Shown piece by piece: positions 16,536-63,322 of a stretch of 64,000 bases of DNA; the first letter of the stretch is position 1, and each line of letters opens with the position of its first letter. Origin of the DNA: a virus; the IMG/VR virus record IMGVR_UViG_3300045988_154953; one strand, given 5' to 3'. The position numbers and the translations under genes are program-made. The notes below the pieces were generated by a model. The model saw only the letters and a program-made list of their open reading frames with translations, made no database searches and had not been told where the DNA came from.

Positions 16536-16553
16536 AATTATATTGATTAGTTT
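16536..16553 (-). promoter_or_regulatory. recurrent 18-nt motif AAACTAATCAATATAATT (copy 1)
   Basis: Exact consensus on the minus strand. Overlaps the TAA stop of 16552..16893 and lies about 35 nt upstream of the GTG at 16501. Confidence 0.5.
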
Positions 16554-16893
16554 AAACACTTTTATTTTTAGAATCATATTCTTTCTTACATTCTTCTAGT
16601 TCTTCATTTGAATATATTACTGTGATTACATCTTTTATATTAAGTCTAATTTCATCGTATTTAGTAATTTCATTATTTATTAAATATCTCGCAATAATAT
16701 CTATTTCTTCAAGCATGTCATCAGATATATATTTGTCTGGTTTAGTAATAGGAGTGATCTTAACTGTTTTTGGCATTACTTTATCTATAATTCCAACGAA
16801 TTTACATGTCTTTGGTTTATCCTCAATTTTAACACTCTTTATATATGCAACAATATCTCCGACATGGAGATCTTGATTAACGAAATCTGTCAT
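16552..16893 (-). CDS. hypothetical protein
   Basis: ORF track. The antisense ORF 16622..16876 is low-complexity and was rejected. Confidence 0.55.
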   Translation of the reverse strand: MTDFVNQDLHVGDIVAYIKSVKIEDKPKTCKFVGIIDKVMPKTVKITPITKPDKYISDDMLEEIDIIARYLINNEITKYDEIRLNIKDVITVIYSNEELEECKKEYDSKNKSV

Positions 16894-16932
16894 AAATTTT
16901 CCACATTATCCTTCTCTTTATTATTCTGGCCA

Positions 16933-16942
16933 CATTGATTAG
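16933..16942 (-). promoter_or_regulatory. partial copy (core ACTAATCAAT) of the recurrent motif
   Basis: Core 10-mer on the minus strand, 40 nt upstream of the ATG at 16893. Lacks the A/T-TAATT tail. Confidence 0.3.
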
Positions 16943-17017
16943 TAGTGTTCGTTTCTTCCGGTACGAATATTATGCATTCGTGATGCTTGAATAGTTTGCC
17001 GGCTTTTTTGCATAATT

Positions 17018-17113
17018 TTAGGTATTCATTTGATACTTTTTTTTATTGAATTCTTTCGGATTAACCATTGGTGGCAATCTGTTTGATTTTAATTGTTTCA
17101 TGAATTTATCCAT
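17018..17113 (-). CDS. hypothetical 31-aa peptide
   Basis: Own translation MDKFMKQLKSNRLPPMVNPKEFNKKKYQMNT. AAAAGGA upstream. Follows the stop of 17126..18391. Confidence 0.3.
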   Translation of the reverse strand: MDKFMKQLKSNRLPPMVNPKEFNKKKYQMNT

Positions 17114-17125
17114 AAGCAGTTCCTT

Positions 17126-18391
17126 TTAATCTCCATAATTTTGAGCAGCAATCCAATTTTCTAAAAGTTCTCTCATACGACTACTAGGTATGTATACTGT
17201 AATATGTTTACCATTTCTTATAGCGCTTCTCCATAAAAATTGAAGCATCTCTGATACCGCATAACCATCTTCATCAACAATCACACCATGAGATGTAAAG
17301 AATTTTTTAATGAATGGATTAAAATATTTATTAACCAAATAAGCAATGGCAGTGCGATCAGCATATTCATTTGTAGCTCTCATATTAGATGGAATGAACC
17401 CTTTTGCGTAACCATTTCCAGAAACAAGCGTTTTATAGTCTTTAAATGTTGTCCACATGTTATTATTAGATTTAGATTTCTCATAGTTTTGAGTTTCTTC
17501 ATTAAAAGCAATTAGTTTGTTATTATAAAAATTAAATGTATTATTCTTTAACTGCTTTACAAGTATATTATCTTTATTTCGTTCATACCATGTTTTAGAT
17601 AAAGCATTTGGAGAATCGCCAATCATATTTAACTTTTTATCATCAATAATATTTATAAGATTTTTGTAATTATATTTTGCTTTATATGTATGTTCTTCCT
17701 CTGTAAAACAATAATTATCTTTATTATCTCCAACTGTATATAAATACTTATATATAATACCATAATAATCATAATAATATTTTTGCATTTGAGCATTGAA
17801 CATATAAGTTAATATGTAACTTTCTCTAAAAGCATTAAATATTTTTACTGGAAACATCCAAAGCATTACCGATCCGCCATACATAGCCAGACATCCCATT
17901 TCACATAATCGTTTTTCTTCTCGAAAACGTCCCTTATAGTCATCAGCTCCATCACGCCATTCTAATAGACCCGTATTTCTATTAATATCAACAAATTTAT
18001 CTAATAAAATATCTAAATCCACTTTTTCAATTTGATATTGCTCTATAACGTCTGTGACCTCATCCATAAATAATACATAATTTTGAGAATAACATAAATC
18101 AATTACTTCGTCATCAAAATGATGGAAGAGTGCATGTGTCGTTACTATATTCTTTCCTTTATTTAATAGTTCTTTCAAATGAACAATTTTAGGAGTTTGA
18201 TTAGTATATTTAATCGGTTCTATGAATTTTTTATTTGCACATGCTTGTTTAATTCTTTCTACCTCAGTAATATATGGTGTTACATATATAATCTTTAAAT
18301 CATCAGGAGATTCTTTAATATAATTAATTGCTGCACTTGTTTTACCAGATCCCATAATACTATCTACTACATTGACAGTTATTTCATTCAT
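17126..18391 (-). CDS. P-loop NTPase (helicase-like Walker A/B protein)
   Basis: Walker A SIMGSGKTSAA, Walker B VLFMDEVTD, then VTTHALF. AAAGGTGG upstream of the ATG. First gene of the leftward cluster. Confidence 0.55.
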   Translation of the reverse strand: MNEITVNVVDSIMGSGKTSAAINYIKESPDDLKIIYVTPYITEVERIKQACANKKFIEPIKYTNQTPKIVHLKELLNKGKNIVTTHALFHHFDDEVIDLCYSQNYVLFMDEVTDVIEQYQIEKVDLDILLDKFVDINRNTGLLEWRDGADDYKGRFREEKRLCEMGCLAMYGGSVMLWMFPVKIFNAFRESYILTYMFNAQMQKYYYDYYGIIYKYLYTVGDNKDNYCFTEEEHTYKAKYNYKNLINIIDDKKLNMIGDSPNALSKTWYERNKDNILVKQLKNNTFNFYNNKLIAFNEETQNYEKSKSNNNMWTTFKDYKTLVSGNGYAKGFIPSNMRATNEYADRTAIAYLVNKYFNPFIKKFFTSHGVIVDEDGYAVSEMLQFLWRSAIRNGKHITVYIPSSRMRELLENWIAAQNYGD

Positions 18392-18874
18392 ATATTATTA
18401 CCACCTTTATTTTAAGAGATTTTTTGAATCATCTCGACATTAATGTATTTCATCTAACAAAAATCAACTTAATAGGTTTTTAATCTCAATTCCTCTTAAA
18501 TTAAAAATTTACTCCTTTATTTTCAACGTTTTTTTGATATACCCATTAAAGAGTATTAAGTATAACTCTCTTAAAATTAGAAAATCAACTTAGAAGCATC
18601 AGAAATTTCAGAAATTGAATTTTCGTTGGGCACATAATTAAGATTATCTTTTGATTATAAGTATTTTTTGAATTTTTCTCTTTGATTTTGTCATTTTTTA
18701 GATCAATTTCCTCCTTTATTTACATAGTATTTATTGTATTCTGTTTGAATAAAGTAATTTAATAAAATTCCCGGATAAAAACATTTGGAACGAAGTGACA
18801 AATTTTTTAGCCAAACAAGTATTATTTCTGAGCGTAGCGAAGAATAATGCTTGTCTTATCAAATGTCTTTCTAA

Positions 18875-18892
18875 AATTATATTGATTAGTTT
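18875..18892 (-). promoter_or_regulatory. recurrent 18-nt motif AAACTAATCAATATAATT (copy 2)
   Basis: Exact consensus on the minus strand in the divergent control region. Confidence 0.5.
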
Positions 18893-18946
18893 GAAAATTG
18901 TAAATCTATTTATATAATACTACTATTTACCTTATTTGTCAATCAA

Positions 18947-18964
18947 AATTAAATTGATTAGTTT
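18947..18964 (-). promoter_or_regulatory. recurrent 18-nt motif AAACTAATCAATTTAATT (copy 3)
   Basis: T-variant on the minus strand, 55 nt from copy 2. Confidence 0.5.
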
Positions 18965-19027
18965 AGACGGATAAGTTGGTTTGATAAGATGTAATACATT
19001 AAAAATCCATATAAATCTCATGCAAAA

Positions 19028-19285
19028 TTAGATATTTAAATCAATGATTGCATTAATGAAATGATAAAGATATTAAAAAATATGAGTATTCTTATGAAAT
19101 TTACTCTAATCAAAAAAATTTTTAGTATGAATATTTTTAACTGATCAAAATGAGTCGTTTAAAATTTAGATAATTATAGTAATTGGGTGGAATGATAAAG
19201 AAAATTATTTCAATTTTAGATATTTAATTTGCAAGCTGGAAGAATGAGATATTGTATAGATAATATGTAATTTTTCGATATTTAA
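19028..19285. repeat. dispersed TTAGATATTTAA-type repeats in an AT-rich control region (possible iterons or operator sites)
   Basis: TTAGATATTTAA at 19028 and 19216, TTAGATAATTAT at 19166, TTCGATATTTAA at 19274. Confidence 0.4.
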
Positions 19286-19785
19286 TCCGATAAATTGGTT
19301 TTTAATAGGAATTATTAAAATGTTATAGGAATTATATGAAGAATTTTGAGTCAGTGTGTAAATTGACCAGCTACAGCATTTGGATCAAAAGCAAACACAC
19401 GTTCTGGTTTTTACTACCCCCTATCCATAAAAGAACATATGTTCTATTAAAACTGGTAAAAATTATAGTTTTTCCCAATTCTAATTCAATTCAATACAAT
19501 TTGCTATATATTGTTTAATATGTTTTTGTTTTGAATACAATAGATATTAAAATTTTTAAATTACTTTTCAAATTGACTATATAAATGAAATTTTTTAGTC
19601 AATTCCTTTTTAAAATGATATATTATTTTAATTTTTCACACAATATCGTACAATTATGCATCTGGTCATATTAATTTGTTCAATTTAATCAACATTAATA
19701 ATACCAGAACACCAGATACAACATTAATCAACATGATATCTATTTATAGATAAAATGTCTATTAAAAATATTTTTAAATTTATTG

Positions 19786-19814
19786 TTGACAATCACGGAA
19801 AACCGTGATAATAT
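19786..19814 (+). promoter_or_regulatory. sigma-A-type promoter P1 with palindromic operator in the spacer
   Basis: TTGACA (19786-19791), 17-nt spacer ATCACGGAAAACCGTGA, TAATAT (19809-19814). The spacer plus first -10 base form the palindrome ATCACGGAAAACCGTGAT. Confidence 0.7.
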
Positions 19815-19903
19815 ATAGACATCCCAAACTGGATAACAATTTTATATTGCTTTTGATTGCAGTCAACAATAAATAGTAGCTAAAGAAAAATTACAAAAAG
19901 TTG

Positions 19904-19932
19904 TTGACAATCACGGAAAACCGTGATACAAT
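19904..19932 (+). promoter_or_regulatory. sigma-A-type promoter P2, tandem duplicate of P1
   Basis: TTGACA (19904-19909), identical 17-nt spacer, TACAAT (19927-19932). A 29-nt block is identical to P1. Confidence 0.7.
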
Positions 19933-20656
19933 CAAAACAAGTTAAGAACTGGTCAATAGTTCTTACGTCATTATATCACATCTGACCAGTACTTGACAAC
20001 CATTGGATAAAATCCTATCCGATGGTAGGCGGTAAGCCTCTGCCATGAAACACTGGTATACTTTCTGCTTGGTAGGTCGTAAAACATCTACCGCAATAAA
20101 GGTGTTGTTCTTTGACAACTTAATAGCCGTTTCATCTTTTTTAAGATGATAATACTTGTCTCGGTATGACAAAAGACAAGGAATTCCATGAGTAGGGATA
20201 AACGAAAATGGTACGGGAATGTTATGCTTACGGGTGTAGTATGTCTCGGACACTAGAAATAGTGGGCGTGGTGTAGCCGACAAGCTGGCCAATGCAATTC
20301 GCTGGTAATAGGTGATAGCAATTAGGGCAATGTTATACACAAAAAGTCTGCAAAATTCACGGTGGTAAATGGGCGGTTGTAGTCTTGTAATATTGCAAGC
20401 CCCGCAAAAAGTGATAAAAATAATCCGTGAAAAGTAGTAGAAACTTTTGTAAATAATAACATTGACTATCGGTGATAGGTCAATACATCTTTCTAATAGC
20501 TCTTTTTTTGAGAAGCTATGGGCGCTTAAAAACGAATAACATTAAATGTAATGTTACCGTTGACGGTTCAAAGTCCGTATGAGAAAAACAGATGACATTT
20601 TAATTTTATTTTCTGCCGATGTCCCCGGCTAGAATAGGGATAGAAAGGGGCATATT

Positions 20657-21463
20657 ATGCTGTGTAACTATATTAAGAACGTGGAGAACCAGGAAGTAAG
20701 AGCAACTTTAACAGATGCTATCACATGGGAAAAATGCGACATGCTGTTAACTCTTAATGCTGAGTCATTAGCAAAACAGGAGAAAATCCTGTCAAGCAAA
20801 GAATCCAGCGAAGAGGATAAAAAAGCCGCTCAGGCCAAAGTTGACAAGTTGACCGCTGAGAAAGATAAACTTGTCAAAGAGCAGTCGGAAGTAGCAGACG
20901 TTTATAAATCTGTTTTGGCTGCTATTGCTGGGGCTAAAAATGAATATATCTCTAACGATGAGACGGCAGCCCGCAACATTCTTAGGCTGTCAAGTTGTGA
21001 TGATAACAAGAATTTTTTCAAGCTTGCTATCATCACTTCAGAAACTTTTGAAAGTTTCTATGACGGCATGGTTCAATTGCATGATACATGCTCTGAATCC
21101 ATCGCTGACAATGGGCTTAGGACTTATTCAGATGCTGATAATAAAGTGGCATCTGAATTGATGCTTAATGTCCAGAAAACACTTAGGGGCATGTTGTCTA
21201 TCCCTGTTGAAAATGACTATACAAAAAAATGTGTAGTCAAAATCAACAAACAGGACATGAACATTATCCATGAGTGTTTTGTTAGCGGTGTTTCCGTTGA
21301 CATCACTAAGGATAAAGAGGGTAAAACTAAGTCTGTTGACGGTTTATCATTCAGATATGCCATCAACAAAAAGACAAAAAGAGACGGTACTGTTGAATAT
21401 AATGGTATCCGTTTCAAAGAAACATTAGCAAAAATTGTTTTTGCTAAACTGTTTTCAAAATAA
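20657..21463 (+). CDS. hypothetical protein (coiled-coil N-terminal half)
   Basis: AAAGGGG lies 7 nt upstream of the ATG. GC-richer than the phage backbone. Internal and antisense ORFs 20925..21161 and 21217..21417 were rejected. Confidence 0.65.
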   Translation: MLCNYIKNVENQEVRATLTDAITWEKCDMLLTLNAESLAKQEKILSSKESSEEDKKAAQAKVDKLTAEKDKLVKEQSEVADVYKSVLAAIAGAKNEYISNDETAARNILRLSSCDDNKNFFKLAIITSETFESFYDGMVQLHDTCSESIADNGLRTYSDADNKVASELMLNVQKTLRGMLSIPVENDYTKKCVVKINKQDMNIIHECFVSGVSVDITKDKEGKTKSVDGLSFRYAINKKTKRDGTVEYNGIRFKETLAKIVFAKLFSK

Positions 21464-21495
21464 TTGCAGACTTAATTGTTAATTAAGTTTGCAAA

Positions 21496-21544
21496 GGGAT
21501 GGCTCTGGTGAGCTTTTATCATGGTTCGATTCCATGACGTCCCA
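21496..21544 (+). ncRNA. tRNA-like element A lacking an anticodon arm
   Basis: GGGAUG-GCUC UGGU GAGC-UUUUAU-CAUGG UUCGAUU CCAUG-A-CGUCCC-A. It has an acceptor-like stem, a D-like hairpin and a canonical T arm. Confidence 0.5.
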
Positions 21545-21580
21545 TTTCTATAAATCCGCACCTATGAAAGGGGTATTTTT

Positions 21581-21790
21581 ATGACTAGATATTACGGTAG
21601 TTATGCAGATATTATTCTTCTTGAGGCTGAACTTACAGAGGTCAATAATCAAATTGACGCTATGTATGACTTTTGGAACGAAAACAGCGTTCCTGAGTCT
21701 CTGGTGGCTCGTGCTGAGTCTCTTGAGAAAGAACTGGAAACTTTAAAACGCACACGTACTCGTGGTGGACTTGTGTGCCGGTGCTATTAA
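21581..21790 (+). CDS. hypothetical protein
   Basis: GAAAGGGG upstream; ORF track. Confidence 0.55.
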   Translation: MTRYYGSYADIILLEAELTEVNNQIDAMYDFWNENSVPESLVARAESLEKELETLKRTRTRGGLVCRCY

Positions 21791-21822
21791 GCGGAAAGTC
21801 TGTAGAAAGAGAGGGAAACGAG

Positions 21823-22059
21823 ATGAATTACGTCCAGATTCAAAAAATGCTTCAGGACATCAAAACCGATTATATTGTAAAGGGTCGGCCTTGGAAAGAT
21901 GATGAATATGTCATCATTGACATATTAATGCATGTATATCTCAAACACGCTGACATTGACCATGAAGAGATTAAATGGCTTTTTGTCAACTATCTGGAAA
22001 CGGGTGAACTGAATTTTCCGGCAGCTATAAAAATGGCACGACAACGGAAGTATGCATAA
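21823..22059 (+). CDS. hypothetical protein
   Basis: Trimmed to ATG at 21823 (MNYVQIQK) after GAGGGAA. Confidence 0.55.
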   Translation: MNYVQIQKMLQDIKTDYIVKGRPWKDDEYVIIDILMHVYLKHADIDHEEIKWLFVNYLETGELNFPAAIKMARQRKYA

Positions 22060-22064
22060 TGTAA

Positions 22065-22107
22065 GGACGGCTGGTGCTGTAATATGAGTTCGATTCTCAT
22101 ACGTCTG
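22065..22107 (+). ncRNA. tRNA-like element B lacking an anticodon arm
   Basis: GGACG-GC UGGU GC-UGUAAU-AUGAG UUCGAUU CUCAU-A-CGUCU. Same architecture as element A, with compensatory T-stem changes. Confidence 0.45.
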
Positions 22108-22175
22108 TTTTGGAACTGTAAATGCAAACTAAAAATATTACGCACCTATGCGTAAAATAGGGGATTGGAGTAAAT

Positions 22176-22355
22176 ATGAAAACAAAATTTTCTGAACTTA
22201 CAAGAGAATTGGGAAAATTGTACCCAATAGAATATGATTATTGTAGTACGGAATCATTGTATTCCCGTGCTTTAAATGACGGAAAAATTACGAGAGGTAT
22301 ATTTAATGCCGCAAAAAAATATTATGATATCATGTGGGATTATGTAGGTGATTAA
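22176..22355 (+). CDS. hypothetical protein (59 aa)
   Basis: Own translation MKTKFSELTRELGKLYPIEYDYC...WDYVGD. GGGGATTGGAG upstream. Confidence 0.5.
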   Translation: MKTKFSELTRELGKLYPIEYDYCSTESLYSRALNDGKITRGIFNAAKKYYDIMWDYVGD

Positions 22356-22403
22356 TTCACCTACATAGGCAAACTGCAAATATAAAAGGAAAGAGAGGAA
22401 AAT

Positions 22404-22580
22404 ATGAAAATATTAGTAACTATAATTAAAACAGTCTTATTAATTTTCGCCCTGCTCATTGGTTGGGTATTCATGACGTGTGATGTCATGGCCGGTGGTC
22501 TTTGGATCATCTTATGTATAACATCATACGGCGCTGTATACGGTATAGTTGAAGAATACAGAGAAAATAAAGCAAAATAG
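22404..22580 (+). CDS. hypothetical membrane protein (58 aa, 2 TM)
   Basis: Own translation MKILVTIIKTVLLIFALLIGWVF...GLWIILCITSYGAVYGIV. AGAGAGGAA upstream. Confidence 0.5.
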   Translation: MKILVTIIKTVLLIFALLIGWVFMTCDVMAGGLWIILCITSYGAVYGIVEEYRENKAK

Positions 22581-23923: not shown

Positions 23924-24262
23924 ATGATACTACACCCTTATAAATCAAATTCTGGACGGGATTTAATTTTTGAATATTTAGATTCTCTGCCAAACAACGA
24001 ACGTATTGATGGCTTGTCAGTTATAGAACATATGGAAAACGGAGAATTTGATAAAATCAATTTCAAACGATGGCAAAAGAAAGTATATGAAGTATATTTT
24101 CAAAAGCATAACCGTATATTTTATGTAACAGTAGATAAAGCTAATATATATTTGCTTCACGCTTGCCGAAAACAGAAAAATAAAACAGAAAAGCAAGATG
24201 CAGATATTGTCAAAAAGCGAGCAAAAGAACTAGGCAAAGAATTAAATAAAACATTTATTTAG
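23924..24262 (+). CDS. RelE/ParE-superfamily toxin (HigB / phage Gp49-like)
   Basis: ...VYEVYFQKHNRIFYVTVDKANIYLLHACRKQKNKTEKQDADIVKKRAKEL fits the Gp49/HigB C-terminal pattern. Precedes an XRE antitoxin by 11 nt. Confidence 0.7.
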   Translation: MILHPYKSNSGRDLIFEYLDSLPNNERIDGLSVIEHMENGEFDKINFKRWQKKVYEVYFQKHNRIFYVTVDKANIYLLHACRKQKNKTEKQDADIVKKRAKELGKELNKTFI

Positions 24263-24273
24263 GAGGTGTTTGT

Positions 24274-24570
24274 ATGCCATTTGGAACAGTAAATGTTAAG
24301 GAAGAAATTGAAAAGAGAAGGCAAAATGATCCTGATTTCAGAAAGGCATGGGATGAATCCCGTGCCGAGTATGAATTAATTGGAGAAATGATAAGTCTTC
24401 GAAAAAAAGAAAATATAACCCAAAAACAATTAGCTGCAATTACTGGAAATAAACAGCAGACTATTTCCAGAATTGAGCGAAAAGAGAGTGTCCCTACAAT
24501 TCGGATGTTTACGAAAATACTTGACGCATTAGGTTATGAATTGAGGATTGTAAAAAAGGGAAGTATGTAG
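24274..24570 (+). CDS. XRE-family HTH antitoxin (HigA-like)
   Basis: ITQKQLAAITGNKQQTISRIERKESVPTIRMFTKILDALGYELRIV. Confidence 0.7.
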   Translation: MPFGTVNVKEEIEKRRQNDPDFRKAWDESRAEYELIGEMISLRKKENITQKQLAAITGNKQQTISRIERKESVPTIRMFTKILDALGYELRIVKKGSM

Positions 24571-25029: not shown

Positions 25030-25047
25030 AAACTAATCAATTTAATT
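25030..25047 (+). promoter_or_regulatory. recurrent 18-nt motif AAACTAATCAATTTAATT (copy 4)
   Basis: Plus strand, 34 nt before the ATG at 25081. Confidence 0.5.
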
Positions 25048-25080: not shown

Positions 25081-25347
25081 ATGAAAGAAGAAGTTTACGA
25101 AGAGATTGAAGAAATTTCAGATAGGGAAATTTCAGATAGTGATATGTTTTTATTTATTGCTAAAATTGCGTTGTTACTCAGTGCAGTTATTATTGGTGCG
25201 ATTGCATATGGAATCACATATTGTGATTTTACACCAATTGTAATCATGGGATTCTTTGTTTTCCCAGTATTTCTTGGTGGTGTGAAATTAGTTTGGGAGT
25301 ATATAAAAGTAAATCTTTTTGAAGACGGGAAGGAACAACCAAACTAA
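25081..25347 (+). CDS. hypothetical membrane protein
   Basis: AAAGGAG upstream of the ATG at 25081. Acidic N-terminus, then two hydrophobic spans. Confidence 0.6.
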   Translation: MKEEVYEEIEEISDREISDSDMFLFIAKIALLLSAVIIGAIAYGITYCDFTPIVIMGFFVFPVFLGGVKLVWEYIKVNLFEDGKEQPN

Positions 25348-25358
25348 TCAATATAATT
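25341..25358 (+). promoter_or_regulatory. recurrent 18-nt motif AAACTAATCAATATAATT (copy 5)
   Basis: Plus strand. Contains the TAA stop of 25081..25347 and lies 83 nt before the ATG at 25441. Confidence 0.5.
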
Positions 25359-30069: not shown

Positions 30070-31008
30070 ATGAAGAACATCGTGAAAATGAACAATACAA
30101 CAGCAGCTACAAACAACAACGCAAAAATGTATGATTTAGTTATGAACTCAACTAAACAGGTTGGATCAAAAGTATACGCATATATTCCAACGGAATTATT
30201 ATTTGTAGATCCAGAATTTCAGAGAGATTCTAATTCTGCTAAATTCCAGAGGAAAGTAAAAATTCTTAAAGAAAAATGGGATATTAACAAAATGGATGCA
30301 TTAAGAGTCGTACCTCATCCAGAAGAATATAAATTTTCTATTATTGACGGAAGTCATCGCGATGAAGTAGCTATCGAACTTGGAATACCTGGTCTTGAAT
30401 GTGAGATTGTTTTTGGATTACCAGATGACCCAGAAAAAAGGCGTGTTGAAGAAGCAAAATTATTCTCAACACAGGATAATGAGAAAGACGTATTAACTCC
30501 TGTTGAGAAACATAAGGCATATGTATTGTGTGGAGTAAGAGAAAATTGTATTTTAGATAAATTAGTTAGAAAATACAATATTCCAATTAAAAAGAATCCT
30601 TCCCATGGTCGTGTACCAGTCGGAGCACTCGCTGGGTTTACAAAATCATTGTATATTATTAAGAAAGATGGAGAATCCATGATGGATGATATTTTTTATA
30701 TTCTCTGTGAAAGTAGATGGAATATTGCATCCAAAGGATTAGGTGCATTAACTATTACATCTGTTTATCATGTACTTTCATATCATCCTGATTATAGAAA
30801 TGAAATTAAAACAGTAATGATTGATTACTTTAAAGAGATTGAACCAGAAAACTTTTTTGCAGAAGCTTCAGTTAAGTATTCAAAGCGAACATTAACACAG
30901 AGCGAAAGACTTACGGTATATCTTGAAGATGTTGTTTGTGAGCATTTAGATATTGAAAGAAGCACAAGTACAAAGAAAATTCTTAGTAAGTCAAAAATTT
31001 CAGCATAA
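30070..31008 (+). CDS. ParB/Srx-fold (ParB N-terminal nuclease-like) domain protein
   Basis: LLFVDPEFQRD...FSIIDGSHRDEVAIELG (DGxHR motif). AAAGGAG upstream. Confidence 0.65.
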   Translation: MKNIVKMNNTTAATNNNAKMYDLVMNSTKQVGSKVYAYIPTELLFVDPEFQRDSNSAKFQRKVKILKEKWDINKMDALRVVPHPEEYKFSIIDGSHRDEVAIELGIPGLECEIVFGLPDDPEKRRVEEAKLFSTQDNEKDVLTPVEKHKAYVLCGVRENCILDKLVRKYNIPIKKNPSHGRVPVGALAGFTKSLYIIKKDGESMMDDIFYILCESRWNIASKGLGALTITSVYHVLSYHPDYRNEIKTVMIDYFKEIEPENFFAEASVKYSKRTLTQSERLTVYLEDVVCEHLDIERSTSTKKILSKSKISA

Positions 31009-33976: not shown

Positions 33977-34282
33977 ATGATTAGTACAGTAGATACGACA
34001 TTAAGTGTGATCAATGGATATGCTTGTATAGTTCCTGTTCAATATCCAAATTGGTATGATATTCCTGAAATTGGATTTATCAATCATGGTGAATGGTCAG
34101 ATCCTTACATTGAGTACAAAGGTAAACAGATTAATTCACATATTATTGAAGATGCAATGTATGAAGAATATTGTGAAGAATGTGAGCCTGGTAAAGACAA
34201 CTTGGATGATTTTGCAATTTATATGAAAAACCATACCGAATATGTATACAATTTAATTGATGAAATAAACGTATGCATATAA
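33977..34282 (+). CDS. hypothetical protein
   Basis: TAAGGAAG upstream; ORF track. Confidence 0.6.
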   Translation: MISTVDTTLSVINGYACIVPVQYPNWYDIPEIGFINHGEWSDPYIEYKGKQINSHIIEDAMYEEYCEECEPGKDNLDDFAIYMKNHTEYVYNLIDEINVCI

Positions 34283-34298
34283 ACTAATCAATATAATT
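34281..34298 (+). promoter_or_regulatory. recurrent 18-nt motif AAACTAATCAATATAATT (copy 6)
   Basis: Plus strand. Begins inside the TAA stop of 33977..34282. Confidence 0.5.
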
Positions 34299-34340
34299 AT
34301 TTATATTGAATGAATATGATACATATGCTATTATAAGAGT

Positions 34341-34358
34341 AGACTAATCAATATAATT
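34341..34358 (+). promoter_or_regulatory. recurrent 18-nt motif AGACTAATCAATATAATT (copy 7)
   Basis: Plus strand, 60 nt after copy 6 and 119 nt before the ATG at 34477. Confidence 0.5.
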
Positions 34359-50047: not shown

Positions 50048-50263
50048 ATGAAGAATAGAAAGAAACAAAAAATTAGGATTTACAATACTAGAGAGGCCAG
50101 GACTGTAGCGGAGAGAAATGGTTGGTATTTAGCTCGTACAGCCGGTGATCATTACATCTACAAACATCCAAATAACAGCAAAATTCTTACCATTTCTCAT
50201 GGATTAAATCGGATTGTATGGCAACGTGTAGTAAGAGAATATAATTTAGATTTGAGTAAGTAA
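50048..50263 (+). CDS. hicA: HicA-like mRNA-interferase toxin (YcfA family), no adjacent HicB
   Basis: TREARTVAERNGWYLARTAGDHYIYKHPNNSKILTISHGLNRIVWQRVVREYNL fits the HicA pattern (Gw..r..GsH..y.h......t.p.H...l....l..i). Confidence 0.5.
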   Translation: MKNRKKQKIRIYNTREARTVAERNGWYLARTAGDHYIYKHPNNSKILTISHGLNRIVWQRVVREYNLDLSK

Positions 50264-57228: not shown

Positions 57229-57465
57229 ATGTTTAAATGGAAAGATTATGAAGAAATCACAGCATTGTTTATTGATGGAATAAACGAAAACATAGCAATT
57301 TTAAGATATAAAGATTTTCAGTTGATAGATGTAGCTACAGGATTAAAAGTGAAAATGAAATCGTCTAATATTGATGAAGCTAAAATTGATGCAGAAAATT
57401 ATTTGAAAGAATTGTGGTACAGAGTAGAACGTAATTACAAGAGAAATCTTGATGCATTGAAATAA
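57229..57465 (+). CDS. hypothetical protein
   Basis: ATG at 57229 lies 9 nt after GAAAGGA; the track start at 57220 abuts the RBS. Confidence 0.5.
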   Translation: MFKWKDYEEITALFIDGINENIAILRYKDFQLIDVATGLKVKMKSSNIDEAKIDAENYLKELWYRVERNYKRNLDALK

Positions 57466-57477
57466 GAGGTATATTTT

Positions 57478-57576
57478 ATGAAAAAAAGGAAATGGATTTA
57501 CGACTATGTAACAGTGGGGAATAAAACATATCAGTTTAAAAATGGAAAATTAAAATGGACTATTAGATGGGAATAG
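57478..57576 (+). CDS. hypothetical 32-aa peptide
   Basis: Own translation MKKRKWIYDYVTVGNKTYQFKNGKLKWTIRWE. TAAGAGG upstream. Confidence 0.4.
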   Translation: MKKRKWIYDYVTVGNKTYQFKNGKLKWTIRWE

Positions 57577-57612
57577 ATCCAAGTTTTCATGAAATGAAAT
57601 GGAGGATAAATT

Positions 57613-57834
57613 ATGAAAAACGAAAGGTATGCAGTTGCTTATAATGATAAAATCGGAAATGGATTTACGGAAACGGAACCTTGGATTCTTGATGACTTTG
57701 ATGATATAAGACAAAGTAGAATAAAGGCAAATGGATTGATCAGATCGGGGTATAAGAATGTAACAATGTTTAAAATCTGTGGTCAACCGCCAGAATGTAT
57801 TACATGGTCATATGTAAAGAAACATGAAATTTAA
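57613..57834 (+). CDS. hypothetical protein
   Basis: ATGGAGGA upstream. Antisense ORF 57550..57786 rejected. Confidence 0.55.
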   Translation: MKNERYAVAYNDKIGNGFTETEPWILDDFDDIRQSRIKANGLIRSGYKNVTMFKICGQPPECITWSYVKKHEI

Positions 57835-57866
57835 CTTTCATTAAAAAAGAAAGAAGGAATAATAAT

Positions 57867-58025
57867 ATGGAAAAGAAAATATTTACTTTAGAATTAACAG
57901 AAGAACAGGCTAAATGGGTTAGAATTGCACTTGATACAAATGGAGATAAACAAGATGAGGCAGGTCATAAAAATAGGGCTGAATTTCTGTATGGACTTGC
58001 AGAAAAATTAAGAATGAAAGAATGA
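57867..58025 (+). CDS. hypothetical protein (52 aa)
   Basis: Own translation MEKKIFTLELTEEQAKWVRIALDTNGDKQDEAGHKNRAEFLYGLAEKLRMKE. AGAAGGAA upstream. Confidence 0.5.
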   Translation: MEKKIFTLELTEEQAKWVRIALDTNGDKQDEAGHKNRAEFLYGLAEKLRMKE

Positions 58026-58057
58026 TTTACTCTGAAGATTGGAGGAGATGATATAAA

Positions 58058-58237
58058 ATGTATGAATGGTCAAAAGAGATTATGGAAAAGATTGCTGCTG
58101 CAAAATGTCTTACAGAATCAGAATTGCGTGAGACGGAAATAGCGTTGAGAATGCATGACATCAATACAGACATATTAGATGAAGCTATAGGTTTGTCAAA
58201 TGACGGAAAATATGAATTAAAATATAAAATATTATAA
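58058..58237 (+). CDS. hypothetical protein (59 aa)
   Basis: Own translation MYEWSKEIMEKIAAAKCLTESELRETEIALRMHDINTDILDEAIGLSNDGKYELKYKIL. Preceded by the junction GATTTACTCTGAAGATTGGAGGAGAT. Confidence 0.5.
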   Translation: MYEWSKEIMEKIAAAKCLTESELRETEIALRMHDINTDILDEAIGLSNDGKYELKYKIL

Positions 58238-58283
58238 GTGCTGAAATGACGATTCCATGATTATGGAAAGCAGGTGATATAAA

Positions 58284-58823
58284 GTGAAAATAACAAGATT
58301 TAAAGATATTCCTCAATTGACAAGAGCTGGAACGTACAATATTAATGTTCCATTAACTCATATTTTAAAAACGCTTTCAGAATGGGAAGAAGATGAATAT
58401 TATCGTTTACAATTAAATCCTAATTTTCAACGTGGGCATGTATGGACAGAAAATCAACAAATTGCATATGTTGAATTTCTACTACGTGGAGGAAAATCAG
58501 CAAAGGTAATTTATTTTAATAAACCAAGTTGGCAGACGGTTGAACCTATTAATGGATATGATGATTTTGTATGTGTTGATGGTTTGCAAAGAATTACAGC
58601 GGTAACTAAATTTTTAAAAAATGAAATTAAAGTTTTTGGTAGTTACTATAAAGATTTTGAGGACAAAATACCTCTCAGTGTAGACCTAATCTTTAATGTA
58701 AACGATCTTAAAAATGAAAAAGAAGTTCTTCAATGGTATGTTGATATGAACGCTGGTGGAACGCCACATAAAAACGAAGAGATTGAACGAGTAAAACAGA
58801 TGATTGAAGAGTTAGAGAAGTAA
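58284..58823 (+). CDS. DUF262-like (GmrSD N-terminal, ParB/Srx-fold) domain protein
   Basis: LNPNFQRGHVWTENQQIAYVEFLLRGG and FVCVDGLQRITAV (DGQQR-type motif). GTG start after AGGTGAT. Confidence 0.6.
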   Translation: MKITRFKDIPQLTRAGTYNINVPLTHILKTLSEWEEDEYYRLQLNPNFQRGHVWTENQQIAYVEFLLRGGKSAKVIYFNKPSWQTVEPINGYDDFVCVDGLQRITAVTKFLKNEIKVFGSYYKDFEDKIPLSVDLIFNVNDLKNEKEVLQWYVDMNAGGTPHKNEEIERVKQMIEELEK

Positions 58824-58997
58824 ATGGATAGATGGAGATATGCAGTTCATTATTGTGAACACCATGAATGTAAAGACTGTTATATTTACAAAAACAATTT
58901 AGATACTCGAACAAAAGATGAATATTTTGATACTCCATGTTGTGAGAACATTCACGATTACTTAAAAAGAAAAGATCTGAATGAATTGCCATGGTGA
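58824..58997 (+). CDS. hypothetical Cys/His-rich protein (57 aa)
   Basis: Own translation MDRWRYAVHYCEHHECKDCYIYKNNLDTRTKDEYFDTPCCENIHDYLKRKDLNELPW. TAAATG stop/start junction. Antisense ORF 58708..59043 rejected. Confidence 0.45.
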   Translation: MDRWRYAVHYCEHHECKDCYIYKNNLDTRTKDEYFDTPCCENIHDYLKRKDLNELPW

Positions 58998-59007
58998 TGT
59001 GATATAA

Positions 59008-59214
59008 ATGGAATGGTCGTGTCCTGTTTGTGGTGCAAAACATGATAGAGACATTAACGCTGCAAAAAATATACTGGCGGAGGGATTACGACAAATAGCA
59101 TAAGAAGAATAACTATATAGGGCAGGGACTGCCCAAATTTACGCCTGTGGAGATAGTAGGTCACGAGGTCTGTGAAGCAGGAAGCCCATTGGCTTTAGAC
59201 AATGGGTAGTTCAC
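59008..59214 (+). mobile_element. tnpB: IS200/IS605-family remnant: TnpB C-terminal 31 codons plus right-end/omega-RNA-like scaffold
   Basis: [31 protein letters not shown] (59008-59103) is the CxxC + DRDxNAAxNI end of TnpB. The downstream GGGCAG-GGA-CUGCCC and CCCAUUG...CAAUGGG hairpins end in GUAGUUCAC (59214), as in IS1341-type right ends. Confidence 0.6.
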
Positions 59215-59295
59215 TTTGAGGCGAAAAGATATGTATGGATTCTCAAGCATTGCTTCAATAAGAAATGATTTGACTTTTAAATATGGGGTAATATA

Positions 59296-59736
59296 ATGGC
59301 GTATTTTATATTAGATCAATGTGCAGAAGATGCAGCTGAAGTGATTTGGGGTAGAAAGAAAATTGTAGGGAATAGAATCGTTGACTGTGATCCAGAGATT
59401 GATGAACAGAAACAAGAAAATACAGATTATGGATGGCTTGCTCCAAATGGGAAATTTCATCTTGTTAAGTTTGGAAATCATCAGGTATGGGCTTCACAAT
59501 ATCTTTTAGATGAATATCGAAAAGGAAATATTGAATCAAAATACAATGAAGATCCGTCTGACAAATTATGTGAAATGGGATTTATATTGATTCATAATCC
59601 ACATGGGTACAATTTCTCTGTTACAAGAAATTGTAATAAAAGGATAACAACTAGACAAGAAAATTTTCTTATTGAATATTTTGAGCAACGCAATATGAAG
59701 GAATGGTTATATAAAATATACAGAGGTGAAATTTAA
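59296..59736 (+). CDS. hypothetical protein
   Basis: ATGGGG upstream; ORF track. Confidence 0.6.
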   Translation: MAYFILDQCAEDAAEVIWGRKKIVGNRIVDCDPEIDEQKQENTDYGWLAPNGKFHLVKFGNHQVWASQYLLDEYRKGNIESKYNEDPSDKLCEMGFILIHNPHGYNFSVTRNCNKRITTRQENFLIEYFEQRNMKEWLYKIYRGEI

Positions 59737-59755
59737 TTTAAACGGAGGTAATGTA

Positions 59756-59914
59756 ATGGAAAAATTAGTTCAGAAAGTAAAATGGGCTTTACCTGGTTCA
59801 CCAGTACAAGAAATGTTTATGTATTGTGATGCTAGTGTTGAGGCAAATCAAGAGATGCAGGAAGTGTTAGAGAAATTATATCAATACGAGAATAATAAAC
59901 TGGAGGATGATTAG
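59756..59914 (+). CDS. hypothetical protein
   Basis: Trimmed to ATG at 59756 after ACGGAGG. Confidence 0.5.
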   Translation: MEKLVQKVKWALPGSPVQEMFMYCDASVEANQEMQEVLEKLYQYENNKLEDD

Positions 59915-59915
59915 C

Positions 59916-60107
59916 ATGAGCTATATACGTTGCCCGAATTGTTGGAAAAGTGATGGAAACGATGATATTATTTTGAGTAAGAAAATCATATGCATGGATA
60001 CTTCCGATTGTCAGATATCAGTTAAGAAACAGTGTGATATATGTGGAAAGATATACGAAGTGATAGCAGAGTATAAATTTTCACACGAAATGTTAGGAGA
60101 ATATTAA
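59916..60107 (+). CDS. hypothetical zinc-ribbon protein
   Basis: CPNCW...CDICGK. ATG at 59916 after TGGAGGA. Confidence 0.55.
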   Translation: MSYIRCPNCWKSDGNDDIILSKKIICMDTSDCQISVKKQCDICGKIYEVIAEYKFSHEMLGEY

Positions 60108-60277
60108 TGACAGAGCAAGATATTAAATGCTGCCAGTGTGGAAAGTTTATTTTAACAGAGCAGCTCACAGATGATAATAAGATCAGATGTATAAAGGGAA
60201 GTTATGATGATGGATATTATACAAACGATGATAAGTTCTATTGCCTGGAATGCGCTGAAAAGTTGGGATTGGAGTGA
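60107..60277 (+). CDS. hypothetical zinc-ribbon protein (56 aa)
   Basis: Own translation MTEQDIKCCQCGKFILTEQLTDDNKIRCIKGSYDDGYYTNDDKFYCLECAEKLGLE. TAATG overlap with the upstream ORF. Confidence 0.5.
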   Translation: MTEQDIKCCQCGKFILTEQLTDDNKIRCIKGSYDDGYYTNDDKFYCLECAEKLGLE

Positions 60278-60282
60278 TATGA

Positions 60283-60741
60283 ATGGATACAGAGAAATAT
60301 AACGGAGATATCATTAGAATTGATCGATTGATTGAGTTTTTGCCAACTGAACATTGGTCATGGGATAAAACAGGAGAAATAAACTTAGACGATATTTCAG
60401 TTGCGATGCATGATACCATTCCAGAAATTTCTGAACCGTATGGTGACAGTTGGAAACATCCGATTTTGGAACAGAAATCAAGGGAATGGCATATAGGGAG
60501 AATTATTTATTTTATCAATCACCCAACGGAAATAAGAGATATTGAGATTGATAATGAATGCAGTGGTAATTTTATTCTTCCACAACCAATTATTGTAGAT
60601 GGTTGGCATAGATATGCAGCCGCTAGATGGTTATATGATCAAGGCAAATTATCTAAAATCCATTGCAGATATGGTGGAAGAATGGATGTTTTAGAATATC
60701 TGCAAGGGAAACTGGATGATTTATCGCTGGAAGCCGTATAG
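60283..60741 (+). CDS. ParB/Srx-fold (ParB N-terminal-like) domain protein
   Basis: PQPIIVDGWHRYAAARWL (DGxHR motif). Antisense ORFs 60183..60419 and 60653..60847 rejected. Confidence 0.55.
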   Translation: MDTEKYNGDIIRIDRLIEFLPTEHWSWDKTGEINLDDISVAMHDTIPEISEPYGDSWKHPILEQKSREWHIGRIIYFINHPTEIRDIEIDNECSGNFILPQPIIVDGWHRYAAARWLYDQGKLSKIHCRYGGRMDVLEYLQGKLDDLSLEAV

Positions 60742-60776
60742 CAAATAAACGATGATTTCTTATAAAGGAGAAAAAT

Positions 60777-61001
60777 ATGTATAGAAAATCAATCAAATCA
60801 TTTAACAATTTGGAACATGGAGATTTAATTATAAGTCCCATTGACAATGAAATTACACAATTTTATATTGATAAAGATGGTAATAAATATCTTGCTGGTA
60901 AAAAATCGTTATTTGATTTATTCCAATTTGATGAAAAAGATTTTTATTTTTATGATGGGAATAAACAAATAGGAGAAGTTGATAAAGATTATTTCAAATG
61001 A
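60777..61001 (+). CDS. hypothetical protein
   Basis: AAAGGAG upstream; ORF track. Confidence 0.55.
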   Translation: MYRKSIKSFNNLEHGDLIISPIDNEITQFYIDKDGNKYLAGKKSLFDLFQFDEKDFYFYDGNKQIGEVDKDYFK

Positions 61002-61035
61002 AAAATTGCTTTCAATGGTAGATGGAGATGATTAT

Positions 61036-61299
61036 ATGAAAAGAATTAAAATGAAAAATAATACAACAAAATTTGTGTGGGACGGAGATAACTGTGTTGG
61101 TAAATACACAGAACTTATAGAACAGTACCATTATGATTTAGAAGAAGAAAAGATGGAACACAAAATAGAAATGGAATTAAATGGATGGAATGATTCTGGG
61201 CAGGTCAAGGAAATGGTAAGTGGTTCTTTAATGCCGGGAGCGAAAAATCCTCCCGTACATGTTTGGTTTGGAAGTTATTATAAAACAATTAGAGAGTAG
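61036..61299 (+). CDS. hypothetical protein
   Basis: Trimmed to ATG at 61036 after GATGGAG. Confidence 0.5.
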   Translation: MKRIKMKNNTTKFVWDGDNCVGKYTELIEQYHYDLEEEKMEHKIEMELNGWNDSGQVKEMVSGSLMPGAKNPPVHVWFGSYYKTIRE

Positions 61300-61387
61300 A
61301 TGAAAGATTGTTTTCATGTATTTTTTATACTTGTAATTCTATAGAACGTTATCACCATAAAATTTATGAAAAGGAGATTGATATAAT

Positions 61388-62596
61388 ATAAAGGTACAGA
61401 GAACGGAGCAACAGAATATAAGAAAAGGACATCCGATATTTGAAATTGTTGATAGATATTGCTTTTATTCTAAAAATGTATATAATGAAGCGAATTATCT
61501 CATGCGACAGGAATTTATAAACAATGGAAATAAGCTTAATGCTAATGACATTCAGAAACATATGCAGGATATGGATTGCTATAAAGAATGTGGATCACAG
61601 GCAGCACAGAAAACAATTCAAATGTTGGATAAAATGTGGAAGTCATTTCTTGTGTCAATAAAGGACTATTACAAAAATCCTGCTAAATATTTGGGCAAAC
61701 CAAAAATTCCAAAGTATTTGAAAAAAGATGGGAGACAAGTGTTTTCGTTGAAGAATATTCAATGTTCATTAAAAAATGGGTTGTTTAGAATCTCTTTTAA
61801 ACCGTTCAAAGGATATACAGTGAGAACACATGCGGATGGGAAACTAATACAATGTAGATTTATACCGAAAGGTTTATATTATGTAATGGAAATCGTCTAT
61901 GAAATTGAAGTACCAAATATTTCAGAAACTTCTAACAGAGTGGCTGCTATTGATATTGGAGTTGATAATTTCATAACTATGGTAAACAACATTGGTGAGA
62001 ATCCAATAGCTGTTAAAGGTGGAATTATTAAGTCGATCAATCGGTTTTTTAATAAACAGAAAGCAAATATTCAATCAGAGTTGAAAAAAGTTAATGGGAA
62101 AGATTGGTCAAAGAAGTTACAAAAACTTACAGACAAGCGATACGAAATGATTAAATACCAAATGCATTGTATAAGTAAGTATGCAGTTGATTGGTGCGTC
62201 TTGTATGGAATTGATACATTAATTGTAGGACATAACGATGAATGGAAACAAAAGAAACAAGGTATGCAGAACTTTACTTACATTCCTTATGAACTGTTTA
62301 TTCAGATGCTTGCATATAAATGTGAAAATAACGGAATCAGGTTCGTAGAGAATGAAGAGACATATACTTCTGGAACATCATTTTTTGACAATGAAGATCC
62401 TGTAAAAGAGAATTATAATAAGGAACGCAGAGTTTATAGAGGATTATTTATTGCAGATTGTGGAAAGAAGATAAATGCAGATGTAAATGGGGCATATCAG
62501 ATATTAAAGAAGGTAATTCCTGATGCGTTTAGCAATGGAATAGAGGGTGCAGGTTCACATCCAACAATTATTAACTTGGCTATGCTGATATCGTAA
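61388..62596 (+). CDS. tnpB: TnpB-like RNA-guided-nuclease family protein (IS200/IS605 accessory type), zinc-finger-less, no canonical start
   Basis: RuvC-like AIDIGVDNF, ENEETYTS and INADVNGAYQI. The frame is open from 61382 (after TGA 61379-61381) and reads (I)KVQRTEQQNIRKGHPIFEIVDRYCFYSKNVYNEANYLMRQ, a typical TnpB N-terminus. It has no ATG/GTG/TTG before M at 61502. ATA at 61388 lies 11 nt after AAGGAG. Confidence 0.65.
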   Translation: MKVQRTEQQNIRKGHPIFEIVDRYCFYSKNVYNEANYLMRQEFINNGNKLNANDIQKHMQDMDCYKECGSQAAQKTIQMLDKMWKSFLVSIKDYYKNPAKYLGKPKIPKYLKKDGRQVFSLKNIQCSLKNGLFRISFKPFKGYTVRTHADGKLIQCRFIPKGLYYVMEIVYEIEVPNISETSNRVAAIDIGVDNFITMVNNIGENPIAVKGGIIKSINRFFNKQKANIQSELKKVNGKDWSKKLQKLTDKRYEMIKYQMHCISKYAVDWCVLYGIDTLIVGHNDEWKQKKQGMQNFTYIPYELFIQMLAYKCENNGIRFVENEETYTSGTSFFDNEDPVKENYNKERRVYRGLFIADCGKKINADVNGAYQILKKVIPDAFSNGIEGAGSHPTIINLAMLIS

Positions 62597-62656
62597 TGTA
62601 AATGGGTTGATAAATCCCGATGAATCAGACATTTCAACAGACAATGAGGTGATGTT

Positions 62657-62881
62657 ATGACAGTACAGGATTTTATCTATAAAGGAAATGTGAGAATTAT
62701 TTCTATTCCAAAAAGAGAACTATTACCGGCGAGTATATATCCTGAGCTTATAGGTAGGATAGGGAGAGTGATTAGGATATCTGGTAATAATGTTGGTATT
62801 ATGATAGATAATAAACATAACAATTGGAGTCAATATGGCTGCTTCTGGTTTGATCCAGAATGTTTAGAATTTGTGAGGTAA
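62657..62881 (+). CDS. hypothetical protein
   Basis: ATGAGGTG upstream; ORF track. Confidence 0.55.
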   Translation: MTVQDFIYKGNVRIISIPKRELLPASIYPELIGRIGRVIRISGNNVGIMIDNKHNNWSQYGCFWFDPECLEFVR

Positions 62882-62886
62882 ATATA

Positions 62887-63045
62887 ATGGATAATTTCAT
62901 GAATGAACCGGAAGAAAAAGAATGGACAGCTACGGACATTGTAAGAGAATATGAACAGTACCAGGACAAGAAGGTTGTAGCTAAGATATTTTGTATTACG
63001 ATTGGAGAAGTGAATAAGATACTAAAAGATACACAAAGGGTATGA
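62887..63045 (+). CDS. hypothetical protein
   Basis: Trimmed to ATG at 62887 after TGAGGT. Antisense ORF 62799..63197 rejected. Confidence 0.5.
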   Translation: MDNFMNEPEEKEWTATDIVREYEQYQDKKVVAKIFCITIGEVNKILKDTQRV

Positions 63046-63100
63046 AAAGGTGTTAAAAGGTATATAAAGGTGTGCAAAGGTATCAAAAGTGATAAGGTGA
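63031..63100. repeat. seven tandem 10-bp phased repeats (nnnnAAAGGn)
   Basis: acacaaaggg/tatgaaaagg/tgttaaaagg/tatataaagg/tgtgcaaagg/tatcaaaagt/gataaggtga. The period is exactly 10 bp. Confidence 0.6.
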
Positions 63101-63105
63101 TAACA

Positions 63106-63285
63106 ATGAACAGAGTTGTGGAGATTTTGGTGCGTAGAGATGGAATTACAGAAGCCGAGGCAAAATCAATACTCAATGATGTAAGGCAAATGTTCAAAGA
63201 ATGTAATTATGATTCAGACGAATGTGAAGATATTATGGCTTGTGAACTTGGTTTAGAATTAGATTATCTTTTGGATGTTTTATAG
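63106..63285 (+). CDS. hypothetical protein
   Basis: ATG at 63106 after AAGGTGAT; the track start at 63070 is GTG inside the repeat array. Confidence 0.5.
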   Translation: MNRVVEILVRRDGITEAEAKSILNDVRQMFKECNYDSDECEDIMACELGLELDYLLDVL

Positions 63286-63304
63286 AATTAATATTCCACA
63301 AATT

Positions 63305-63322
63305 AAACTAATCAATTTAATT
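63305..63322 (+). promoter_or_regulatory. recurrent 18-nt motif AAACTAATCAATTTAATT (copy 8)
   Basis: Plus strand, 80 nt before the RepA_N ATG and 18 nt upstream of its -35. Confidence 0.5.

Follow-up and report, generated by a model that had tools for sequence, protein, structure and literature searches.

A repeated 18-nt box in an SPbeta-like human-gut phage as the probable operator of its MrpR-family master repressor

Master repressors that have an integrase fold and dispersed, asymmetric operators have so far been studied in the arbitrium phages of Bacillus. The SPbeta repeated element (SPBRE) was noted in 1999; chromatin affinity purification sequencing (ChAP-seq), electrophoretic mobility shift assays, and reporter fusions have established that MrpR (YopR), a tyrosine-recombinase-fold master repressor, binds it (PMC10516654). 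The ChAP-seq peaks of MrpR fall on this nonpalindromic 15-bp element at about 10 promoters, and both PaimR and PyosX are repressed by the protein (PMC10516654). In phage phi3T, the orthologous SroF encircles DNA as a monomer at an asymmetric 26-bp AT-rich box (Phi3TRE), with multiple sites dispersed across the genome (bioRxiv 10.1101/2025.11.27.690993). Here, we describe an 18-nucleotide (nt) motif, AAACTAATCAATWTAATT, that recurs across 64,000 nt of viral DNA (IMG/VR record IMGVR_UViG_3300045988_154953; this whole stretch is hereafter the window) and that is probably the operator of a MrpR/SroF/YopR-family master repressor of the same phage, i.e., the counterpart of SPBRE and Phi3TRE.

The window, with a G+C content of 31%, is identical to bases 103728 to 167727 of k119_156924, a 215,456-bp human-gut metagenome contig in ENA. 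The scan of this contig for the motif covered 82 of its 215 kb, comprising the window and its flanks; positions beyond the window are given as window equivalents. The phage is an SPbeta-like phage of the human gut, and a relative is a Clostridia metagenome-assembled genome from the same environment; its host probably belongs to a gut Clostridia lineage. Related contigs cluster around 160 to 220 kb in size. A megablast search with 10 kb of sequence recovered no relative among GenBank phages, and a scan of IMG/VR for the exact 18-mer returned 32 matches, each of them a single copy, indicating that these arose by chance and that IMG/VR contains no close relative.

The motif and its placement around promoters

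Allowing up to 2 mismatches, the motif occurs at exactly 8 sites in the window, of which 7 are exact and one (34341 to 34358) is an AGAC variant; an earlier note on this sequence had located all eight correctly by position and strand. Dinucleotide shuffles yield a chance expectation of 0.19 ± 0.39 for the 18-mer, and none of 100 shuffles reached 8. Three further copies lie on the same contig to the right of the window (at 64459, 67847, and 68381), and each of the 11 copies lies between genes or at a gene end and points in the direction of transcription, the bias that the earlier note had proposed as a check. Their orientation reverses together with that of the genes at about 19 kb, and the motif is the top repeat in an unbiased count of intergenic 9-mers on this contig. 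Its 9-mer core, CTAATCAAT, occurs 9 times, compared with 2.13 expected. What had been listed as a core-only copy does contain the 9-mer, but it matches the motif at only 12 of 18 positions and, since a single extra 9-mer is within chance, may be either a decayed copy or a coincidence. The copies, the promoters that adjoin them (scored out of 12), and two genes of the leftward operon are as follows.

18947 to 18964, minus strand: motif copy AAACTAATCAATTTAATT, upstream partner of a pair, starting 22 nt before the -35 hexamer of a leftward promoter
18914 to 18942, minus strand: sigma-A-type promoter TTGACA-17-TATTAT (11/12), between the two copies
18875 to 18892, minus strand: motif copy AAACTAATCAATATAATT, downstream partner, 72 nt away start to start, at about +15 to +32 of the preceding promoter
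17126 to 18391, minus strand: YonV-like gene (43% identity to SPbeta YonV); the large gene nearest the pair on its downstream side
16933 to 16942, minus strand: core-only site CTAATCAAT(G), with the 9-mer at 16934 to 16942
16536 to 16553, minus strand: solitary motif copy within the leftward operon; it shares bases with the TAA stop of the open reading frame (ORF) at 16552 to 16893 and lies 34 nt before a GTG at 16501
8264 to 11044, minus strand: gene for a distant YonO-like protein of 926 amino acids, within the operon headed by the motif pair
25030 to 25047, plus strand: motif copy starting 1 nt after a promoter-like TTGATT-17-TAGAAT with TG (9/12), 33 nt before the next ATG
25341 to 25358, plus strand: solitary motif copy, overlapped by the preceding gene's TAA stop; the next ATG follows after 82 nt
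34281 to 34298, plus strand: motif copy, upstream partner of a second pair, overlapping a TAA stop and starting 25 nt before TTGAAT
34306 to 34334, plus strand: weaker promoter-like TTGAAT-17-TATTAT (9/12, below the cutoff of 10/12), between the two copies
34341 to 34358, plus strand: motif copy, AGAC variant, downstream partner, 60 nt away start to start, beginning 6 nt after the -10 hexamer and 118 nt from the start codon
63305 to 63322, plus strand: motif copy ahead of the repressor-operon promoter, with its start 35 nt from the -35 hexamer, and 79 nt from the RepA_N start codon
63340 to 63367, plus strand: sigma-A-type promoter TTGAAA-16-TATAAT (11/12), heading the operon that carries the repressor gene

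The promoter enclosed by the first pair heads a leftward operon with the YonV-like gene at one end and the YonO-like and HU genes at the other. The copy at 25030 begins 1 nt after a promoter-like site and therefore overlaps the predicted transcription start. Promoters scoring at least 10/12 adjoin 4 of the 11 copies, compared with a background fraction of 0.106 for intergenic positions chosen at random (P = 0.02). The five distances to start codons (for the copies at 16536, 25030, 25341, 34341, and 63305) and the overlaps with TAA stops (16536, 25341, and 34281) agree with those given previously.

This layout recalls that of SPBRE. Both elements are nonpalindromic AT-rich boxes that are dispersed and intergenic, numbering about 10 to 13 in SPbeta and 11 here, and in the SPbeta sequence, as in the window, the copies are co-oriented with their genes. 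At yonX, two SPBRE copies 64 nt apart flank the sigma-A promoter TTGATT-17-TATAAT, much as the pairs do here; at aimR, one copy abuts the -35 hexamer; and at yopM, yopV, and yonO, the copies abut the ribosome-binding sites. The two elements are unrelated in sequence (CAAAWAATATGTATA for SPBRE, versus AAACTAATCAATWTAATT here): the 82 kb contain no SPBRE-like repeat, and SPbeta contains no copy of the window motif. They also differ in that a full TAGACA-17-TATAAT promoter encloses many of the SPBRE copies, whereas the box in the window usually lies beside the promoter. SPBRE and the phi3T box likewise differ from one another in sequence, and divergence of operators between phages with different repressors is expected. 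Phi3TRE shares with the window motif its asymmetry, AT-richness, and dispersed sites, but the SroF box measures 26 bp, of which 24 bp are contacted, whereas the conserved portion here is 18 to 19 bp.

Among 18 nonredundant copies from three close genomes, information content is limited to positions 1 to 18 plus a T-biased position -1; beyond position 18, it drops at once to background, and no start region is conserved. Conservation over 18 to 19 bp is the footprint expected of a protein-binding site, and the motif itself is asymmetric and nonpalindromic. The sole degenerate position, W13, coincides with what would be base 2 of a TATAAT -10 element, and it is T in 7 of the 18 copies. A T at the critical second-position A speaks against the tail functioning as a sigma-A -10 element, and no conserved -35 hexamer occurs upstream of the motif in these copies. 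The motif lacks both of these hallmarks of a sigma-A promoter, and the previous judgment that the motif is not a plain sigma-A promoter stands.

The same features bear on the possibility that a phage-encoded activator, or a factor that modifies sigma, binds the motif to switch on middle promoters, with the TATAAT-like tail serving as the -10 element in solitary copies. Such a factor would suit the upstream copies, which at about -58 to -41 occupy the position of a class I activator, and it would suit the solitary copies, which end in TATAAT or TTTAAT without a -35 hexamer. The promoters that are flanked, however, are already near consensus (TTGACA-17-TATTAT) and should not need activation, and the partner copies occupy places suited to repression, either beyond the -10 hexamer or across the start site. 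Together with the degenerate base in the would-be -10 element and the failure to identify a candidate activator, this makes activation an unlikely role for the motif.

A signal acting in RNA (in processing, antitermination, or translation), or a mere conserved gene-junction sequence that supplies stop codons, would explain why the orientation is strictly strand specific, why several copies run into stop codons and directly precede ribosome-binding sites, and why, in one comparison of related genomes, homology breaks off 3 nt past a copy. A consensus fold of the 11 copies with their flanks yields 0 predicted pairs, the upstream copy of each pair is not part of the transcript made from the promoter that the pair flanks, and the motif is present at only about 11 of more than 150 gene junctions. 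We regard this as the least probable of the explanations considered here.

The repressor gene and its predicted regulon

Annotation of the flanking contig with Pfam revealed a gene of the MrpR/SroF family about 2.9 kb to the right of the window end. The gene is part of the operon headed by the promoter at 63340 to 63367 and preceded by the motif copy at 63305. Its components are as follows.

63402 to 64000, plus strand: 5' part of the RepA_N gene (Pfam E = 5.7e-28), first gene of the operon, which continues past the window
64508 to 65506 (window equivalent), plus strand: integrase gene (Phage_integrase; 332 amino acids)
65605 to 66876 (window equivalent), plus strand: DndB/YopQ-like gene (423 amino acids)
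66878 to 67821 (window equivalent; L046 15377 to 16320), plus strand: MrpR/SroF-family gene, frameshifted on this contig

The ORF that follows the copy at 63305 is thus RepA_N, as had been supposed. The MrpR-like protein contains the Pfam MrpR_N_CB domain (51 bits, versus a cutoff of 27; E = 2.3e-13), and the gene order of integrase, DndB-like, and MrpR-like matches the yopP-yopQ-yopR synteny of SPbeta, whose YopQ also matches DndB. The same order of integrase, YopQ-like, and MrpR genes is present in the relatives L172 to L176. On the window contig, a deletion of 1 nt within an A4 run breaks mrpR into ORFs of 252 and 62 codons, by comparison with L175 and L176, in which the 314-codon gene is intact. 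The intact ortholog of close relatives, P0001, has 314 amino acids, is 94% identical, and matches MrpR (8A0A), YopR, and 9rd5 in sequence.

The AlphaFold model of P0001 has a mean predicted local distance difference test score of 90.8, and its top structural matches are YopR and MrpR (E of about 1e-13). It superposes on DNA-bound SroF of phi3T (9rd5), a monomeric integrase-fold clamp, with a template modeling score of 0.80 and a root mean square deviation of 3.3 Å. Searches of the window and the early loci with SPbeta YopR by tblastn and phmmer found nothing, because the gene lies outside the window and has diverged too far for pairwise searches; the repressor is only about 20% identical to MrpR. 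A search of IMG/VR for loci related to the MrpR-like protein found none. A protein search recovered 88 repressor clusters from the gut-phage group.

Like SPBRE, which precedes the yopM-to-yopR operon (the operon containing mrpR) with one copy and also stands ahead of yonO, the window motif has a copy ahead of the repressor operon, and its presumed cognate repressor sits in the integrase-YopQ-MrpR synteny. Other aspects distinguish this phage from SPbeta and phi3T: it has a genome of about 215 kb with RepA_N and a gut Clostridia host lineage, the 82 kb examined showed no arbitrium genes, and no Sar-like antirepressor was identified. From the protein homology and the architecture, we infer that the MrpR-like protein would bind the 18-mer and that binding would repress transcription, and the alternative raised in the earlier note, a binding site for a phage regulator, is supported. 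The operator set most likely joins the known SPBRE/Phi3TRE kind, here in an uncultivated lineage of gut phages.

In the mechanism that we propose, a monomer of the integrase-fold repressor would clamp each asymmetric AT-rich box in one orientation. Relative to host sigma-A promoters, some boxes would be bound at about -58 to -41 and at about +1 to +30, and others would be bound singly, just ahead of ribosome-binding sites inside operons. During lysogeny, bound repressor would silence the early lytic operons, including that with the YonO-like RNA polymerase gene, and the repressor would autoregulate the operon encoding RepA_N, the integrase, the YopQ-like protein, and the repressor itself. The predicted regulon comprises the YonV to YonO-like/HU operon, the RepA_N to repressor operon, and several blocks of small early genes. 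The same logic is suggested for a large group of human-gut phages of about 160 to 220 kb that probably infect Clostridia, and the 18-mer supplies a concrete predicted operator amenable to a simple binding test.

Other DNA-binding proteins of the phage were considered as ligands of the motif, namely, a ParB-like protein (30070 to 31008) with a KorB-like global regulon or an ORF6N regulator (4416 to 5213). The ParB-like protein matches phrog_1033 (E = 8e-9), and in L040, a ParB/KorB-like gene directly follows a motif copy. There is also a formal resemblance to the KorB operator (OB) of plasmid RK2, for which a dozen dispersed operators, some of them next to a -35 hexamer, serve one global repressor. 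KorB operators, however, are palindromes bound by a ParB-family dimer, and the motif is asymmetric and oriented, unlike either parS or KorB sites. Moreover, the ParB-like proteins of the window and of L040 have no similarity detectable by BLASTP, although their phages share the motif core. We rejected a ParB/KorB-type operator on the basis of this asymmetry and this lack of relatedness. A different DNA-binding protein has no precedent within the phage group, and such an operator is, on the whole, slightly less probable than an activator site.

Motif variants in related phages and the YonO-like polymerase gene

Conservation of the motif in related phages, which had been put forward as a check, is evident at two levels. 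Close variants of the phage retain the 18-mer; in L034, two copies contain 0 single-nucleotide polymorphisms, versus 6 in about 110 flanking nt, a difference that is not significant alone (P of about 0.18). In L175, there are additional pairs, 55 and 88 nt apart, around TTGACA-17 promoters and ahead of different cargo genes. The more distant relatives lack the 18-mer and have variants of their own, built on an AAACT or AAACTAAT core and arranged in the same layout, as listed below.

L040 (YonV 67% identical): AAACTAATCATAATTAAAAT, in six copies, each co-oriented; two of them, 64 nt apart upstream of yonV, enclose TTGACA-17-TAATAT
L039 (YonV 52% identical): AAACTCTAATTWAAAA; a pair 65 nt apart flanks TTGACA-17-TATACT upstream of yonV
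L173 and L172 (MrpR about 50% identical): AAACTAATTAA...; copies lie next to TTGACA-17 promoters or just before ribosome-binding sites

In ten cases in which an upstream copy precedes a -35 hexamer, it starts 22 to 26 nt before the hexamer, except for two in which this distance is 35 nt. Variants of the motif also rank first in the unbiased intergenic 9-mer counts of L173 and L040. No comparable repeat was found within 15 kb in L174, whose MrpR is 37% identical, and the matches listed from a scan of IMG/VR for the L039 variant are mostly single chance occurrences.

Several observations weigh against assigning the motif to the MrpR-like repressor. The association with strong promoters is statistically modest, the two pairs are not independent, and the copies at 16536, 25341, and 64459 have no recognizable promoter nearby. 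Because the motif bears no sequence likeness to SPBRE or Phi3TRE, its link to them is drawn from protein homology and architecture. The AAACTAAT core is common to phages whose MrpR proteins are only about 50% identical, and strict covariation of repressor and operator is accordingly not demonstrated. The repressor gene itself lies outside the window, on a contig of which 82 of 215 kb were scanned, and the split mrpR may be an assembly error or may denote a repressor that is defective, as in a clear-plaque-like variant. Finally, the Pfam scan recovers the N-terminal MrpR domain only, and the precomputed annotation has both domains; the full-length structural match of P0001 settles that the fold is that of an integrase-type repressor.

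The reading favored in the earlier note was that the 18-mer is the promoter of the YonO-like RNA polymerase. On this view, and as in T7-type promoters, the 12-nt 5' part would be recognized and the AT-rich tail melted. The phage does encode a distant homolog of YonO: the 926-amino-acid protein matches phrog_8308 (E = 2.8e-90) and aligns collinearly with SPbeta YonO (21% identity over 471 amino acids), and its gene adjoins that of an HU/YonN homolog. The strict co-orientation of the motif with transcription accords with such a promoter, as do the copies that lie 33 to 34 nt before a start codon with no other promoter between. SPbeta YonO transcribes the late operon only, from a single start site upstream of yonK, and its promoter sequence and consensus are not known (PMC5467207); a search of the YonO literature after 2017 recovered nothing on this promoter.

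The distribution of the motif does not fit this assignment. The late structural cluster lies to the left of the window, where an endolysin gene and a 1.1-kb gap are followed by YonG_N, terminase-like, portal-like, and YonD_N genes. No copy with 3 or fewer mismatches occurs between -9424 and +16500, i.e., in about 26 kb that include the start of this cluster and the gap before it; in SPbeta, the late operon is the only one that YonO transcribes. Copies flank sigma-A promoters on both sides, in the window and in its relatives as well as in SPbeta, where it is the repressor that binds the element. A pair heads the polymerase's own operon and a further copy precedes the lysogeny operon; located inside an operon headed by a motif pair, the YonO-like gene is predicted to be among the repressor's targets, instead of encoding the protein that reads the motif. 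T7-type and other phage polymerase promoters are also short, strongly conserved, and oriented, with an AT-rich 3' part, but they precede the polymerase-dependent genes and their conservation spans the start site, whereas conservation here ends at position 18 and the spacing between the AAACT core and the AT-rich tail varies among relatives. A role for the motif as the YonO-like promoter is therefore very improbable, which removes a tempting but poorly supported candidate for the promoter of YonO.

A combined role has a slim chance, marginally better than that of the polymerase promoter by itself. The 18-mer would then be both a repressor box and the core of a promoter from which the YonO-like polymerase transcribes middle genes, with the repressor occluding a noncanonical polymerase promoter; if true, this would constitute the first promoter consensus for a YonO-type enzyme.

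Separately from the question of what binds the motif, the relatives differ in the genes that follow it. Homology between L176 (10971 to 10991) and the window contig (67847 to 67867) ends 3 nt after a motif copy, with different cargo beyond, and copies head different accessory modules, including genes for a cation ATPase and TerD in L175 and NAD-salvage genes in L176. The boxes may mark junctions between mosaic modules, and this breakpoint and the different cargo of L175 and L176 raise the prospect that they might double as exchange points for gene cassettes.

Between the downstream copy of the first pair and the YonV-like start codon is an untranslated leader of about 480 nt (18392 to 18874, minus strand), for which Rfam returned no family match. 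Comparable leaders of 230 to 640 nt are present in L039 (9420 to 9980) and L040 (1010 to 1240).

Neighboring genes and the divergent control region

Immediately upstream of the YonO-like gene is a gene for a 591-amino-acid protein (11060 to 12835, minus strand) with a weak match to Amidoligase_2 (phrog_16683). The pairing of these two genes is retained in L033 to L035, and in L039 and L040, the YonO-like gene likewise follows large ORFs that have no annotation.

A second operator system, of the classical dimer type and distinct from the 18-mer, appears to control rightward transcription. Two near-identical strong promoter-like units lie 118 nt apart on the plus strand (19786 to 19814 and 19904 to 19932), and the spacer of each (TTGACA-ATCACGGAAAACCGTGAT-...) contains the perfect palindrome ATCACGG-AAAA-CCGTGAT (2 copies, versus 0.04 expected). 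Downstream of these units, about 700 nt of higher G+C content (about 19940 to 20650, plus strand) are apparently untranslated and precede a 268-amino-acid ORF at 20657. This stretch may be a structured RNA. It has no match in Rfam at the gathering score, and a twister-P1 ribozyme match at 20545 to 20599 is subthreshold (31 bits, versus 67 required; E = 4e-4).

The repressors of phi3T and SPbeta are inactivated by Sar, a small antirepressor under LexA control. Within the divergent control region of the window, a LexA-box-like sequence, GAACATATGTTC, is located at 19433 to 19444, just downstream of a minus-strand promoter-like TTGAAT-16-TATAAT (19489 to 19462); no convincing small ORF was found downstream of it.

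Five transfer RNA genes (4064 to 6580, minus strand) lie in the leftward gene cluster between the PhoH/PIN and lysin genes. The small early genes include a likely toxin-antitoxin pair consisting of a Gp49/HigB-like and an HTH_3 protein (23924 to 24570, plus strand), as well as a HicA-like toxin gene (50048 to 50263, plus strand). The RepA_N control region is closely preceded by a TnpB gene (IS605 OrfB/Cas12f-like; 61502 to 62596, plus strand). Another IS605-type unit, at about 68.9 to 70.1 kb (window equivalent), is absent from the close relative L175, indicating an insertion polymorphism.

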